Assembly: GCA_050299555.1 (NCBI GenBank)
Contig: JBNKWA010000077.1
Coordinates: forward strand, 15,490-79,489
DNA: 64,000 bases
Origin: Paracoccaceae bacterium
GTDB lineage: Bacteria > Pseudomonadota > Alphaproteobacteria > Rhodobacterales > Rhodobacteraceae
Reading direction: 5' to 3'
This document shows, one piece after another, positions 27,954 through 33,713 of this stretch. The notes beneath the pieces were generated by a model. It was not told the origin of the DNA. It worked only from the letters and a program-made list of their open reading frames with translations, and searched no databases. Both the position numbers and the translations under genes were made by a program. Each line of letters starts with the position of its first letter. Within the stretch, counting starts at the first letter, position 1.

Positions 27954-28282
27954 GCCAAGTCCTGCCTTCGTTCCGTCCCTCGTGGCCGCCGATTTTTTTG
28001 GCCGACCATCCCTCTGACCGAGGTTTCGCACTCGACCCCGGTTCAGCCAAGCGACATTTCTTGCCTTGATTCGTGCTCGGCGGATTTCTGCCGAAAGTCA
28101 CGTTTTTTGGCGCTGTGCCCGGCCATTCACCACAACTTTACCGAAAGCTGATGCACAAACTCCACAGTTGCGCTGCAATCTGCGAGCATCGTCACCGCCA
28201 TCTGTGGCGGTCTGCGACGATGTTGATAGCGTCCGTTGACAAGGTAAGCCAGCGAGTGGGTCACGTGTCGGAACTTGGATTT

Positions 28283-29977
28283 ATGCGGTCAGCGCCCTGC
28301 GCTTTGACCATGTTTTTTGCTGTCTTGGCGTCAGGCGCCGTGGCCCAGGACGCACAGCCGCCGTTGCCGGCGGCTGTCGAGGATATGGCGGCGACCGCCG
28401 ATCCCCTTGTGGCTTCGGTCTCCGACGCGCTGGAGGAGCCGGCCGAGGTGCCGTTGGCGCCATTGCCGGCACTCTTGCGCGACAGCATCGCATCGGGTGG
28501 GCCGGTGCTGGCGCAGCTCGATGCCTTCTATGCCGAGCGGGGCTACCAGCCCGTCTGGGACGCAGGCCACGGCGACGCCCTGCTGGCTGCCCTGGCTCAG
28601 GTTTCCCGGCATGGCCTTCCGCCGGCGCGCTACGAGGCCGATGCCCTCGCGGCGACGTTGCAGACCGGGCTTGCCGGGGGCGCCGACGACGATGCACGCG
28701 TCGCGGCCGAGATTGCCGCGGCGCGGACCTTCGTGACCTACGCGCATGACATCAACTCGGGGATGCTGGAGCCGCGCGAGATCGACCGCGAGCTGACCTT
28801 CCGCCCGCACCGCGCGGACCCCTCGAAGATGCTCGCCGACTTCTTCGCGGCACCGGATGCCGATGCCTTTCTCTCCGGCTTGGCGCCGCAGCATCCGCAA
28901 TATGCAGCCCTTCTCGACCAGAAGGTGCGGCTCGAGGCGCTGATCCAGGCCGGCGGCTGGGGCCCCGAGGTGCCCGCCGGCAAGACCATGCGTCCGGGTC
29001 AGGCGGGGTCGCGGGTGCTGGCCATGCGCCAGCGGCTGTCGCGCATCCTGCAGCAGTCGCTGGGCGACAGCGATGTCTTCGACGAAGGGCTGGTCATCGC
29101 GCTCAAGCAGTTCCAGGACCGCCACGGGCTGAACGCCGATGGCGTTGCCGGGCCGGCGACGCTGGCGGCGCTGAACCGCTCGCCCGAGTTCCGGCTCGAA
29201 CAGGTGCTGGTCAATCTCGAGCGCCAGCGCTGGATGAACTTCGACCGCGGCTATCGCCACATCTTCGTCAACCAGGCCGACTTCTCCATGGCCGTCTACG
29301 AGGATGGCAAGGCGATCTTCCGCTCGCGCACCATCATCGGCAAGGCGGCCGAGCATCGCACGCCCGAGTTCTACGAAGAGATGACCCATATGGTCGTCAA
29401 CCCGACCTGGCACGTGCCGCGCTCGATCGTGACCGAGGAGTACCTGCCGCGGCTGCAGCGCAACCCCGGCTCGCTGCCGCACCTGCAGGTGATGACCCGC
29501 AGCGGCACCCGGATCAACCCGCGGCTGGTCAATTTCGGCCAGTTCACCAAGGGCAACTTCCCCTTCATCATGAAGCAGGCACCGGGCAGCGGCAACGCCC
29601 TCGGCCGGGTCAAGTTCATGTTTCCCAACCAGTACGACATCTACCTGCATGACACCCCGACCAAGCCGCTCTTCGCCAGGGACGTTCGTGACTTCAGCCA
29701 TGGCTGCGTGCGGGTGCAGCGGCCGTTCGAGCTGGCGCACCTGCTGCTCAGCTGGCAGACCGACGAGCCCGAGGCGGTGTTCGAGCGGGCGCTGGCGGGC
29801 GGGCGCGAGCGCCACCTCGATCTGGCCAAGCCGGTGCCGATCTATCTCACCTACCAGACCGCCTGGGTTGACGATGACGGCGTCAGCCAGTTCCGCGAGG
29901 ATGTCTATGGCCGCGACCGGCGCATCTTCGGCGCGCTCGCCGATGCCGGCGTGACGCTGCCGGCGGTTGAAGGCTAG
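28283..29977 (+). CDS. L,D-transpeptidase family protein (YcbB/LdtD-like, PG-binding + YkuD domains)
   Basis: Start chosen at the signal-peptide Met (MRSAPCALTMFFAVLASGAVAQ). PG_binding_1-like LKQFQDRHGLNADGVAGPATL. Catalytic HDTPTKPLF...SHGCVRV. Confidence 0.85.
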   Translation: MRSAPCALTMFFAVLASGAVAQDAQPPLPAAVEDMAATADPLVASVSDALEEPAEVPLAPLPALLRDSIASGGPVLAQLDAFYAERGYQPVWDAGHGDALLAALAQVSRHGLPPARYEADALAATLQTGLAGGADDDARVAAEIAAARTFVTYAHDINSGMLEPREIDRELTFRPHRADPSKMLADFFAAPDADAFLSGLAPQHPQYAALLDQKVRLEALIQAGGWGPEVPAGKTMRPGQAGSRVLAMRQRLSRILQQSLGDSDVFDEGLVIALKQFQDRHGLNADGVAGPATLAALNRSPEFRLEQVLVNLERQRWMNFDRGYRHIFVNQADFSMAVYEDGKAIFRSRTIIGKAAEHRTPEFYEEMTHMVVNPTWHVPRSIVTEEYLPRLQRNPGSLPHLQVMTRSGTRINPRLVNFGQFTKGNFPFIMKQAPGSGNALGRVKFMFPNQYDIYLHDTPTKPLFARDVRDFSHGCVRVQRPFELAHLLLSWQTDEPEAVFERALAGGRERHLDLAKPVPIYLTYQTAWVDDDGVSQFREDVYGRDRRIFGALADAGVTLPAVEG

Positions 29978-30084: not shown

Positions 30085-31182
30085 ATGACCCATACCATCC
30101 GCAGTATCGCCCGGGCGCTGGGCGCCGAGGCCGAGGGCGATCTCGACCTCGCCATCGCCCGCCCCGCCGAGCCGGCCCGCGCCGGCCCCGACGATCTGGC
30201 CCTGGCCATGGACCCCCGCTTTGCCGAGGGACTGGCCGAAGGCGGCGCCCGCGCCGCCATCCTCTGGCCCGGCGCCGACTGGCGGGCGCTGGGGCTCAGC
30301 GCCGCGATCTTCGCGCCCAGGCCACGCTACGTCCTGGCTGGCGTCACTAGCCTTTTCGCGCCCCCGCCGGCATCGGCGCCGGGCATCCACCCCACCGCCA
30401 TCGTCGATCCCTCCGCCCGCCTCGGCGACGGCGTCTCCATCGGCCCGTTCTCCATCGTCGAGGCCGGCGCGGAAATCGGCGCCGGCAGCACCATCCTGTC
30501 GCATGTGGTGATCGGCGCCGGCGCGGCAATCGGGCCCGGCGCCCTGATCCACGCCCGCGGCTGGATCGGTCCCGGCACCGTTGCCGGGCCCGGCCTCATC
30601 ACCCATCCCGGCGCGATCGTCGGCGCCGACGGCTTCTCCTTCGTCACCCCGCAGCCCGGCGCGGTCGAGGCGGCGCGCGCCACCGGCCAGATCGACCCCG
30701 CTGCCGATCCCGACGCCACCCGCTACGTGCGCATCGCCTCGCTCGGCCGGGTCATCCTGGGCGCCGATGTCGAGATCGGCGCCAATGCCTGCATCGACCG
30801 CGGCACCATCGTCGACACCGTGATCGGCGACGGGACCAAGATCGACAACCAGGTGCAGATCGGCCACAACTGCCGCGTCGGCAGCCATTGTCTGCTCTGC
30901 GGCCAGGCCGGCGTCGCCGGCTCGGTCACCATCGGTGACCGGGTGGTGCTGGGCGGCAAGGCCGGGATCGCCGATCACATCACCATCGGCTCGGACGTGG
31001 TGGTGGCCGGCGCCTCGGGCGTCTCCTCAAACATCCCGTCGGGGCGGGTGATGATGGGCAATCCGGCGGTTCGCATGGACCTCAACGTCGAAATCTACAA
31101 GGCGCTGCGACGGCTGCCACGGCTGGTCGCCCGCGTCGCCGAACTGGAGAAACGGGTTTCCAAGACCGGGGCGAAGGATTAG
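30085..31182 (+). CDS. LpxD-family UDP-3-O-acylglucosamine N-acyltransferase (divergent paralog-like)
   Basis: 365 aa. N-terminal uridine-binding-like domain, left-handed beta-helix hexapeptide repeats, catalytic-region GADGFSF. An insertion (TPQPGAVEAARATGQIDPAADPDATRYVRIASLG) is present. Not in the usual bamA-lpxD-fabZ-lpxA context. Confidence 0.75.
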   Translation: MTHTIRSIARALGAEAEGDLDLAIARPAEPARAGPDDLALAMDPRFAEGLAEGGARAAILWPGADWRALGLSAAIFAPRPRYVLAGVTSLFAPPPASAPGIHPTAIVDPSARLGDGVSIGPFSIVEAGAEIGAGSTILSHVVIGAGAAIGPGALIHARGWIGPGTVAGPGLITHPGAIVGADGFSFVTPQPGAVEAARATGQIDPAADPDATRYVRIASLGRVILGADVEIGANACIDRGTIVDTVIGDGTKIDNQVQIGHNCRVGSHCLLCGQAGVAGSVTIGDRVVLGGKAGIADHITIGSDVVVAGASGVSSNIPSGRVMMGNPAVRMDLNVEIYKALRRLPRLVARVAELEKRVSKTGAKD

Positions 31183-31216
31183 ATAGCAGCGCGTGGGTAT
31201 GTCCGGAGCTCTCCTG

Positions 31217-31480
31217 ATGCCGAGTGTTAAGGATCAGATCGTAGCGATCATCGCCGAGCAGGCGGTGCTGGAACCGGAAGACGTGAGGCTGGATTCGACG
31301 CTTGAGGAACTGGGCGTGGACAGTCTGGGCCTGGTCGAGGCGATCTTCGCCATCGAGGAAGCCTTCGACATCCAGGTCCCGTTCAATGCCAACGATCCGG
31401 GTCGGTCCGAGTTCGATATCACCAATGTCAGCGCCATCATCGAGGCGGTGCAGGGGCTTCTGTCCCAGAAGACGGCCTGA
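31217..31480 (+). CDS. Acyl carrier protein (specialised, NodF/AcpXL-like context)
   Basis: MPSVKDQIVAII...LGVDSLGLVEAIFAIEE with the DSL phosphopantetheine Ser. The alternative start at 31193 is less likely. Confidence 0.85.
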   Translation: MPSVKDQIVAIIAEQAVLEPEDVRLDSTLEELGVDSLGLVEAIFAIEEAFDIQVPFNANDPGRSEFDITNVSAIIEAVQGLLSQKTA

Positions 31481-31489
31481 CGCATCCGC

Positions 31490-32698
31490 ATGAAGCGGGT
31501 CGTCATTACCGGCATGGGCGCGGTCTCGGCCCTCGGGCCGTCGGCCGCCGAGACCATGCGCGGGATGCGCGAGGCCGTCTGCGGCATCGGGCCGCTTGAG
31601 TTCGACAATGTCGAGCGCCTCGGCATCCGCATCGGCGGTCAGATACGCGGCTATGATGCCGAGGCGCATTTCACCCGCCAGGAAATCACCCTCTACGATC
31701 CGTTCACCCAGTTCGCCCTCCTGGCCGCCGCCGAGGCGGTGGGCCAGTCCGGCCTCAGCGAGGGCCAGTTCATCGCCGACAATGCCGGGGTCGTGCTGGG
31801 TACCGCCGGCGGCGGGCTGCAGACCCAGGACGAGAACTACCGGCAGGTCTACGAGGAGGCGAAGAACCGCGTCCATCCCTTCGTGGTGCCGCGGCTGATG
31901 AACAGCGCCGCCGCCAGCCATGTCTCCATGGTGCACGGGCTGCGCGGGCCGAGCTTCACCGTCGCCACCGCCTGCGCCTCGTCGAACCATGCGATGGGGC
32001 TGGCGCTGAACCTGATCCGTGGCGGCACCGCCAGCGTCATGCTCACCGGCGGCTCGGAAAGCATGCTGTGCTTCGGCGGCATCAAAGCCTGGGAAGGTCT
32101 GCGGGTGATGGCCAAGGATGCCTGCCGGCCGTTCTCGGCCAATCGAAGCGGCATGGTTCAGGGCGAGGGCGCGGCGATCTTCGTGTTCGAGGAATTCGAG
32201 CACGCGCGCGCCCGCAGCGCCGAGATCCTCGCCGAGGTGGCGGGCTTTGCGATGACCTCGGACGCGTCCGACATCGTCATGCCCAGCCGCGAGGGCGCCA
32301 GTCGGGCCATGCGCCAGGCGCTGGCCGATGCCGGCCTGGCGCCCGAGGCGATCGGTTACATCAACGCCCATGGAACCGGCACGACGGCCAATGACCGCAC
32401 CGAATGTGCCGCCGTGCGCGAGGTCTTCGGCGCCCATGCCGACCGTCTGATGATCTCGTCCACCAAGTCGATGCACGGCCACATCATGGGCGGCACCGGC
32501 GCGGTGGAACTGCTGGCCTGCATCATGGCGCTTCGCGATGGGGTGATCGCACCCACCATCGGCTATGAAGAGCCGGACCCCGACTGCAATCTCGACGTGG
32601 TGCCCAACGTGGCGCGCGAGGCGAAGGTCGGCGCGGTCGCCTCGAACGCCTTCGCCTTCGGCGGGTTGAATGCGGTCCTGGTGCTGAAGTCGGTCTGA
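31490..32698 (+). CDS. Beta-ketoacyl-ACP synthase (KAS I/II family, FabF/NodE-like)
   Basis: 402 aa. Active-site TACASSNHA Cys, His motifs NAHGTGT and KSMHGH. 9 nt after the ACP gene. Confidence 0.9.
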   Translation: MKRVVITGMGAVSALGPSAAETMRGMREAVCGIGPLEFDNVERLGIRIGGQIRGYDAEAHFTRQEITLYDPFTQFALLAAAEAVGQSGLSEGQFIADNAGVVLGTAGGGLQTQDENYRQVYEEAKNRVHPFVVPRLMNSAAASHVSMVHGLRGPSFTVATACASSNHAMGLALNLIRGGTASVMLTGGSESMLCFGGIKAWEGLRVMAKDACRPFSANRSGMVQGEGAAIFVFEEFEHARARSAEILAEVAGFAMTSDASDIVMPSREGASRAMRQALADAGLAPEAIGYINAHGTGTTANDRTECAAVREVFGAHADRLMISSTKSMHGHIMGGTGAVELLACIMALRDGVIAPTIGYEEPDPDCNLDVVPNVAREAKVGAVASNAFAFGGLNAVLVLKSV

Positions 32699-32816
32699 GC
32701 CGGTCGGGGTGCGGGCGCCTGGTGGCCGGATCGCGCCCGGCCACGCCCCGCCCAGCCCACCCGCGTGGCCGGGCGCGATCCGGGTTCTGGCGCTTCGCCG
32801 GCCGGGGCTTGCCATC

Positions 32817-32896
32817 GTCCCCACCGCGTCCCCACCGACGTTAACACTTTAATTGTTTTATTTCAAAGCGTTAGGTATGCGTCCCCGTGGGGACGC
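32817..32896 (-). repeat. GGGGAC-repeat element, copy A1 (80 bp)
   Basis: Forward strand reads GTCCCCAC-CGC-GTCCCCAC-CGACGTTAACACTTT...AT-rich...GCGTCCCCGTGGGGACGC. Confidence 0.8.
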
Positions 32897-32971
32897 CTGT
32901 TCTGGTGCGCAGCTGGTGCCTCTTGGTGCGACAAGGGGCGCGAGATAGGCGGCCCGGCGCGCGACACCGAT

Positions 32972-33039
32972 GTCCCCGGACCGTCCCCACGGGATTTGCC
33001 ACGATTCCAGTACCTTGACCCCCCGTCCCCATGGGGACG
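32972..33039 (-). repeat. GGGGAC-repeat element, copy A2 (68 bp)
   Basis: Forward strand reads GTCCCC-GGACC-GTCCCCAC...CGTCCCCATGGGGACG. Same orientation as A1, 75 bp away. Confidence 0.8.
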
Positions 33040-33071
33040 CTGCTCGCGGGGCGCGATACCGGCGTTGCGGT

Positions 33072-33713
33072 CTATCCGCCGGTCGCCGCCACCAGCGCGT
33101 CGTAGGCAGCGGTGAAGCCGGTCAGCGACAGCGTAAGAACCACGGGCTCCTCGGGCAGTCCGATCGAGCGCAGGGTCACGGTCGCCTTGGCGCCACGCTT
33201 CAGGGTCGACACGCCGCCGTCATCGACGCCGAAACGGGCGAAGCAGCCCGAGCGGGTGCACCAGTTGAAGGGATAGGTGGCAGCGGCATTGGAATCGACC
33301 TGCACCGAAAGTCCCGCCGTCAGCAGCGTGCCGAGCGGCGTCACCACCGTGGCGCCAGCGGTCGCCTCGGCTTCCGCGGGCAGCTTGATCATCGAGAACT
33401 CCACGACCGGGTTGTCGTCCTGATCGCGCAGAAGCTGGTAGAGGAAGCAGTCCGCCTTGTCGGGCGTGCAGCGCAGTTCCCAGTCTCCGAACGCCTCGGT
33501 AATGAACTCCGGTTCGGCCGGCGCGGCGGGTGCCGCTTCCGCTGGATCGGCTGCTGCGGGCGCGTCGGCGGCGTCGGATGCAGCAGGCGCGTCGGCTCCG
33601 ATCTCGGTCTGAACCGAGGCCGCGCCGCTGGCTTCCTGTGCAGTTGCCGCCACTGGCAAAAAGGTCGCCAGGGCAATGGCGGCCAGGCCGCAAAATAGGC
33701 TCTTGCTATGCAT
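33072..33713 (-). CDS. Invasion-associated locus B (IalB) family periplasmic protein
   Basis: 213 aa, signal peptide, Ala/Pro-rich linker, then FGDWELRC...CFLYQ...NWCTRSGCFARF, typical of the IalB family. Confidence 0.8.
   Translation of the reverse strand: MHSKSLFCGLAAIALATFLPVAATAQEASGAASVQTEIGADAPAASDAADAPAAADPAEAAPAAPAEPEFITEAFGDWELRCTPDKADCFLYQLLRDQDDNPVVEFSMIKLPAEAEATAGATVVTPLGTLLTAGLSVQVDSNAAATYPFNWCTRSGCFARFGVDDGGVSTLKRGAKATVTLRSIGLPEEPVVLTLSLTGFTAAYDALVAATGG

Follow-up and report, generated by a model that had tools for sequence, protein, structure and literature searches.

We analyzed a 64,000-nucleotide (nt) stretch of DNA (the window) from a Paracoccaceae bacterium (assembly GCA_050299555.1, contig JBNKWA010000077.1, positions 15,490 to 79,489), in which lpxD, the gene for the UDP-3-O-acylglucosamine N-acyltransferase of lipid A synthesis, is followed by genes for an acyl carrier protein (ACP) and for a β-ketoacyl-ACP synthase (KAS). 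The source genome (3.75 Mb, 68% GC, 97.7% complete) was compared with relatives from the Rhodobacteraceae. The ACP and KAS genes are conserved next to lpxD across this family, and they are also kept by relatives that have lost lpxD. We propose that the pair maintains a private pool of acyl-ACP on which amide-forming acyltransferases draw. LpxD may be one of its clients, and there would be one or more besides; we place this reading slightly below even odds (about 0.45).

The ACP–KAS pair with and without lpxD

The three genes are co-directional on the + strand: lpxD lies at 30085–31182, the ACP gene at 31217–31480, and the KAS gene at 31490–32698, with intergenic gaps of 34 nt and 9 nt. A preliminary description of the window had reported a specialised ACP and then a KAS with Cys-His-His residues close behind lpxD, and both the spacing and the residues were confirmed. 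The linkage is not due to chance. The order lpxD-acp-kas was found in 76 of the 80 loci of the family and again, between unrelated flanks, in 9 genomes from as many other families of Alphaproteobacteria; one outside family (G266) adds a fabZ paralog to the operon. KAS itself is present in 142 of the 146 Rhodobacteraceae genera sampled. When 201 genomes of Alphaproteobacteria were scored, 13 had KAS, 16 had an LpxD with an extended loop (insert-type LpxD, see below), and 12 had both, so that KAS occurred in 12/16 genomes with insert-type LpxD versus 1/185 of the remainder. This conserved order argues for an old functional tie between the pair and lpxD. lpxD-acp-kas is a core, annotated locus of the Rhodobacteraceae, a status that limits the surprise it holds.

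The pair is dispensable in Rhodobacter sphaeroides. In transposon sequencing data, RSP_2776 (ACP) carried 9 insertion sites in 267 bp and RSP_2777 (KAS) 36.5 in 1209 bp, densities like those of non-essential neighbours, whereas RSP_2775, in the lpxD position, carried 0 in 1092 bp (PMC5513736 Table S1); the orthology of RSP_2775–2777 to lpxD-acp-kas was assigned by gene order, gene length, and naming. In four genera lpxD and lpxC persist although KAS is lost; three of them show a clean deletion of both pair genes, and the fourth retains a remnant of the ACP gene. As a full account, a supply line dedicated to feeding 3-oxoacyl chains to LpxD, proposed in the preliminary description, is not supported: the pair is non-essential though lpxD is essential, it is absent from four lpxD-bearing genera, and it is kept under purifying selection in genomes without lpxD and lpxC (see below). 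In KAS-less G098 (L154:4795–6140), LpxD is lengthened to 391 residues, a decayed ACP remnant is left, and KAS is gone, apparently through a recent loss.

The pair also occurs apart from lpxD. One genome (G355) has it together with a canonical lpxD in the bamA cluster, and in Mesorhizobium, Magnetococcales, Xanthomonas, and other bacteria NodF/NodE-like pairs lie at a distance from lpxD. Outside the Alphaproteobacteria, KAS was found in two families of a 401-genome sample (in which inclusion of the Spiribacter family is not established), in neither case beside lpxD. The Mesorhizobium pairs (L265:4532–5999 and L266:4507–6076) lie beside urease genes, away from nod clusters. In Xanthomonas-type and Magnetococcales genomes (L115:2238–9454, L261–L264, L274), a HAD phosphatase gene accompanies the pair, as does one for a class III aminotransferase; the Xanthomonas cluster also holds GNAT, arginase, DegT, and EamA genes; these are likely aminolipid clusters.

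Four of the 80 family loci read ldt-acp-kas (ldt being the L,D-transpeptidase gene upstream) and have no lpxD. At least 11 such loci, with lpxD cleanly gone, belong to one genus-level Maritimibacter/Sinisalibacter group, with Sinisalibacter aestuarii, S. lacisalsi, and Maritimibacter sp. HL-12 among its members. The Maritimibacter/Sinisalibacter clade that lacks lpxD at its locus is represented by loci L073, L155, L156, L157, L218–L220, and L277–L290 (genomes G041, G042, G129, and G730–G739). lpxC was not found in 7 of 7 genomes tested from the genus-level group, nor in G044 and G129; G041, G042, G044, and G129 yielded neither lpxA nor lpxB. In both genomes inspected, G041 and G042, lpxA-lpxI-lpxB is cleanly deleted after fabZ. 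ACP and KAS are intact in these genomes and as similar to the query as those of other relatives, G129 being more diverged. The ratio of nonsynonymous to synonymous substitution rates (dN/dS) of KAS was 0.08–0.23 among lpxD-less loci versus 0.02–0.20 in lipid A-bearing pairs, rough values obtained with a simple counting method on GC-rich genes. A recent relic was ruled out by the intact frames, the identity of ∼80% between species, and dN/dS values well below 1. Two further assemblies, both fragmented and placed on other branches of the KAS tree, show the same deletion of lpxD at the locus, so lpxD may have been lost on more than one occasion. The retention of the ACP–KAS pair without lipid A genes is a new observation, and because relatives without early lipid A genes keep the pair, it cannot serve lipid A alone.

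G041, G042, and G129 also keep an intact kdsA, a full-length but diverged waaA (89–105 bits versus 207 in the source genome), and a likewise full-length, diverged lpxK (118–146 bits versus 204). The Maritimibacter/Sinisalibacter clade may have an outer membrane without lipid A, or may carry 3-deoxy-D-manno-octulosonic acid (Kdo) on another anchor. A limited literature search found no report of a clade that is without early lipid A genes yet has lpxK, waaA, and kdsA, and this clade may merit more attention than lpxD-acp-kas itself. In a further assembly, which has neither lpxB nor an lpxD at the usual locus, a canonical-type lpxD and lpxA lie on a small contig (G043:C369:995–2910) that is possibly contamination.

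Family assignment of the ACP and KAS

The ACP (PF00550; 87 residues from the ATG at 31217, with alternative upstream starts possible at 31193 and 31199) has its predicted phosphopantetheine site at Ser36. It scores below all AcpP and AcpXL cut-offs (42.6 on TIGR00517, cut-off 70.45), and its best match in the PDB, by a small margin, is NodF (1FH1). The motif around the serine reads DSLGLVE versus DSLDTVE in the housekeeping AcpP. DSL had been read as the sign of a specialised ACP; it is not, since the housekeeping AcpP carries it too. The distinguishing marks of the ACP are instead DSLGLVE and the NodF match.

The KAS (402 residues; Cys162, His294, Lys326, and His331, of which Cys162, His294, and His331 form the triad) falls below the fabF cut-off of TIGR03150 (433.7, cut-off 493.75). 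Its identity is 49–52% to NodE of nod clusters versus 38% to the FabF and 31% to the FabB of the same genome. Among plasmid matches outside the Rhodobacterales, the best are rhizobial NodE proteins encoded within nod clusters, and a WExLRV motif is common to KAS and NodE, both of which lack 7 residues present in FabF. In quick trees that covered FabF, FabB, and NodE and left out AcpXL-type and polyketide KAS, the KAS and NodE formed one clade, from which FabF and FabB were separate (Shimodaira–Hasegawa-like approximate likelihood ratio test, 99). The approximately unbiased test (p 0.7) did not separate a placement of NodE within the lpxD-linked KAS from one as their sister; an origin of NodE within the lpxD-linked clade is unsupported. 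The helix that lines the acyl pocket differs from that of NodE, and matches in a protein atlas gave family-level names only. These comparisons showed that the ACP and KAS belong, by similarity and tree, to a NodF/NodE side branch of fatty acid synthesis distinct from AcpP, FabF, and FabB; the analogy to NodF/NodE drawn in the preliminary description was correct and stronger than stated.

The likeness to rhizobial NodF/NodE extends to the layout. Both are ACP–KAS gene pairs with a DSLGL-type ACP, and both stand near a glucosamine N-acylating enzyme, NodA in rhizobia and LpxD here. Unlike NodF/NodE, the present pair is a chromosomal core locus of nearly every genus of its family and not a symbiosis gene; nodABC are absent at the locus, whose neighbours are ldt, lpxD, and ialB (nodA, nodB, and nodC were not searched for genome-wide). 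The pair shares the Cys-His-His ketosynthase fold and the DSL motif with the housekeeping proteins but differs from them in clade, in identity, in scores below the equivalog cut-offs, and in lacking a fabD-fabG-acpP-fabF context. The housekeeping genes are present as separate intact copies, acpP-fabF on contig C5 and fabA-fabB-fabI on another contig (C3).

Homologs carry AcpXL labels in UniRef. This identity is not supported: on PRK06508, which we take to be the AcpXL model, the ACP scored 33.6 bits against a cut-off of 83; the locus has one KAS only; and an LpxL-family (PF03279) late acyltransferase was not found in the source genome. Most tested relatives have a PF03279 gene; the source organism may make tetra-acylated lipid A, or else the assembly may have missed the gene. 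The AcpXL cluster of Rhizobiales, which serves a very long lipid A acyl chain, resembles the present locus in combining a private ACP with a KAS, here presumably also for an envelope lipid, but an AcpXL cluster comprises further components: two KAS together with a dehydratase, a reductase, and LpxXL (PMC7663294). The gene set expected of an AcpXL system (fabZXL, two fabFXL, adhXL, and lpxXL) is not found here. No study of the ACP or KAS genes was found in the literature searched.

Candidate users of the acyl-ACP pool

We envisage the following route. The KAS would load its Cys162 with an acyl chain supplied by the housekeeping pathway and condense this chain with malonyl on the private ACP, yielding a chain two carbons longer. 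Housekeeping enzymes handle NodF unevenly; if FabG and FabZ likewise handled the private ACP only partly, the chain would halt at the 3-oxo or 3-hydroxy stage. The resulting pool would serve amide-forming acyltransferases. Its users probably include LpxD, and this use would account for the old gene linkage, although LpxD can do without the pool. A further user, or more than one, would have to exist, if only in the lpxD-less clade.

The best candidates for this other user may be the OlsB/GluB aminolipid N-acyltransferases, whose product in this family carries an unusually long amide-linked 3-OH-20:1 chain. Glutamine lipid ions of m/z 717 and 435 are reported for Ruegeria pomeroyi (PMC6298996). 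By our calculation these match amide-linked 3-OH-20:1 plus 18:1, and 20:1 is two carbons past the usual 18:1. Both PF13444 N-acyltransferase genes are kept in G041, G042, G044, and G129, and in two of the four KAS-less genera (G016 and G052) the second PF13444 gene is absent or truncated as well. This evidence for an aminolipid client is suggestive only. A late acyltransferase (LpxL/LpxXL) was considered as a client and rejected, PF03279 having been found in none of four genomes that have the pair (the source genome, G041, G044, and G129).

Several points weigh against a shared pool. The other two KAS-less genera, G002 and G098, retain both PF13444 genes intact, and the pair was not seen beside olsB or gluB in any locus. 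In a sister family (f2; L159, L161, and L162), KAS lies ∼200 nt after lpxD and no ACP gene intervenes. Common regulation, and not common chemistry, could underlie the linkage to lpxD, and the counts of linked loci overstate the number of events, kin genomes not being independent. Finally, the pair could have been co-opted for a new function in the lpxD-less clade once lpxD was gone.

A rather unlikely alternative is that the pair is chemically unlinked to LpxD, makes long 3-hydroxy chains (3-OH-20:1 by extension of 18:1) destined for aminolipids or some other envelope lipid, and lies behind lpxD only to share the promoter of an envelope gene. Both directions of loss agree with it, the pair being retained without lpxD and lost with lpxD intact, as do the NodF/NodE-like pairs far from lpxD, the coexistence of the pair with a canonical bamA-cluster lpxD in G355, the insert-type LpxD without the pair in Azospirillum cavernae and Constrictibacter, and the missing or truncated second PF13444 gene of G016 and G052. 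However, the three-gene order persists in 9 other families despite changed flanks, KAS is concentrated in genomes with insert-type LpxD (12/16 against 1/185), and the LpxD loop is shortened to 23 residues in the same KAS-less G016 and G052.

We consider it unlikely that the main job of the pair in lipid A-bearing Rhodobacteraceae is a route to 3-oxo lipid A, in which the KAS would make 3-oxo-14:0 on the private ACP, FabG would ignore it, and LpxD would transfer it unreduced. The operon of the source genome contains no reductase or dehydratase gene, the pair is family-wide, 3-oxo acids are reported in the lipid A of R. sphaeroides and R. capsulatus (PMC5923411), and non-essentiality of the pair fits a fallback to 3-hydroxy chains. 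Yet such a route leaves the retention of the pair without lpxD unexplained. Amide-linked 3-oxo-14:0 is also found in the gammaproteobacteria Spiribacter salinus and Ectothiorhodospira (PMC5923411), whereas non-alphaproteobacterial KAS was confined to the two families of the 401-genome sample mentioned above. S. salinus invariably carries the 3-oxo chain on a single glucosamine (PMC5923411) and LpxD acts before the halves join, which suggests a later, position-specific step. The fabZ paralog in the G266 operon implies processing past the 3-oxo stage. Supply of 3-oxo chains to LpxD may nonetheless be one part of the shared-pool reading.

A combined version is quite doubtful: the pair would supply lipid A amide chains including 3-oxo-14:0 and, in Maritimibacter/Sinisalibacter, a chain for a replacement, non-lipid A anchor that would be phosphorylated and Kdo-linked. 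Very unlikely is a product like that of NodE/NodF, that is, trans-2 or conjugated polyunsaturated chains for a lipid or signal. The shared WExLRV motif and 7-residue deletion would fit such a product; the acyl-pocket helix is unlike that of NodE, and a report of such chains in Rhodobacteraceae was not found in the literature searched.

The literature searched gave no account of where two acyl chains come from: the 3-oxo chain in the lipid A of Rhodobacter, after which Eritoran was modelled (PMC5923411), and the 3-OH-20:1 chain that roseobacter aminolipids carry. A two-gene, non-essential, family-wide module with natural losses in both directions offers an inroad to the origin of both chains. 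A private acyl-ACP pool of this kind would also give the NodF/NodE family a non-symbiotic function.

LpxD, its loop, and the surroundings of the locus

LpxD (365 residues) is almost certainly the ordinary, essential lipid A N-acyltransferase, relocated out of the bamA cluster. It scores above the cut-offs of TIGR01853 (284.8 bits, cut-off 242.5) and NF002060 (310.9, cut-off 207). An AlphaFold model (predicted local distance difference test score, pLDDT, 87) matched the LpxD structures 2IU8 and 4IHH in Foldseek with a template modelling score of ∼0.8; the predicted fold comprises an N-terminal uridine-binding domain, a left-handed β-helix, and a C-terminal helix. His261, Asp238, and Asp254, which we equate with the catalytic His and the conserved Asp residues of E. 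coli numbering, are invariant in 114 of 114 sequences. The predicted activity is transfer of an acyl chain from acyl-ACP to UDP-3-O-acyl-glucosamine. The protein thus shares with canonical LpxD (E. coli 3EH0/4IHF, Chlamydia 2IU8, Pseudomonas 3PMO) its three-domain fold, the catalytic His, and both conserved Asp, in addition to profile score, single copy, an essential ortholog, and joint loss with lpxA, lpxB, and lpxC in relatives. It differs in its location outside the bamA cluster, in ∼21 extra residues in a β-helix loop, and in the private ACP and KAS downstream. At the position that presumably corresponds to Met290, the chain-length ruler of E. coli, this LpxD has a Gly; the position varies widely within the insert-type subfamily.

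The preliminary description had placed LpxD outside the usual bamA-lpxD-fabZ-lpxA context, and indeed the bamA cluster of the source genome reads rseP-bamA-ompH-fabZ-lpxA-lpxI-lpxB, without lpxD. The label of paralog, on the other hand, has to be dropped. No second lpxD was found in the source genome, where the next-best match is lpxA, and lpxA, lpxB, lpxC, and lpxK are all present; lpxD occurs in 145 of the 146 genera, none with two full copies, and the insert-type gene is again the sole intact lpxD in 13 genomes of other families. The check for a second, canonical lpxD thus went against a paralog, while the tight linkage of ACP and KAS in relatives bore out the other half of the idea. Acylation of another amino-sugar or aminolipid by LpxD is unlikely because LpxD is needed for ordinary lipid A. 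That it is a spare paralog acylating another amino-sugar is next to impossible: only location and insertion speak for it, no second lpxD exists, the ortholog is essential and is lost together with lpxA, lpxB, and lpxC, and a canonical lpxD hidden in the missing ∼2% of the assembly is implausible given 145 relatives. In another genome, a broken canonical-type lpxD (G351:C84:1008–1826) accompanies an intact insert-type lpxD-acp-kas, possibly a replacement under way.

The extended loop (residues 185–220, 30637–30744, + strand) had been described as an insertion of about 35 residues. The loop is real, but its 36 residues compare with 15–18 in canonical alphaproteobacterial LpxD, so the net gain is ∼21. 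Its length is 31–39 residues across the insert-type subfamily, and a short helix is predicted at residues 193–200 (pLDDT ∼65–70). As a marker of coupling to the ACP, the insert gave a divided picture: the loop is reduced in two of the four KAS-less genera (G016 and G052) and normal in the other two, and the insert is kept without the pair in A. cavernae, Constrictibacter, and two further genomes. In A. cavernae (L214:7663–8781), the insert-type LpxD is the only copy and the pair is absent, a natural control for the role of the insert.

Upstream, ldt (28073–29977, + strand, start uncertain; PF03734, PF20142) is a conserved neighbour in Rhodobacteraceae only and is missing from the lpxD-acp-kas locus in other families. 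Downstream, a convergent IalB-family gene (33072–33713, − strand; PF06776) is conserved in synteny within the Rhodobacteraceae. A promoter and terminator scan of the locus gave no signal above chance. Between the KAS stop codon and ialB, positions 32810–33050 hold several short palindromic GC-rich repeats with the core CGTCCCC...GGGGACG, and an AT-rich patch lies at ∼32840–32870 in the same spacer.

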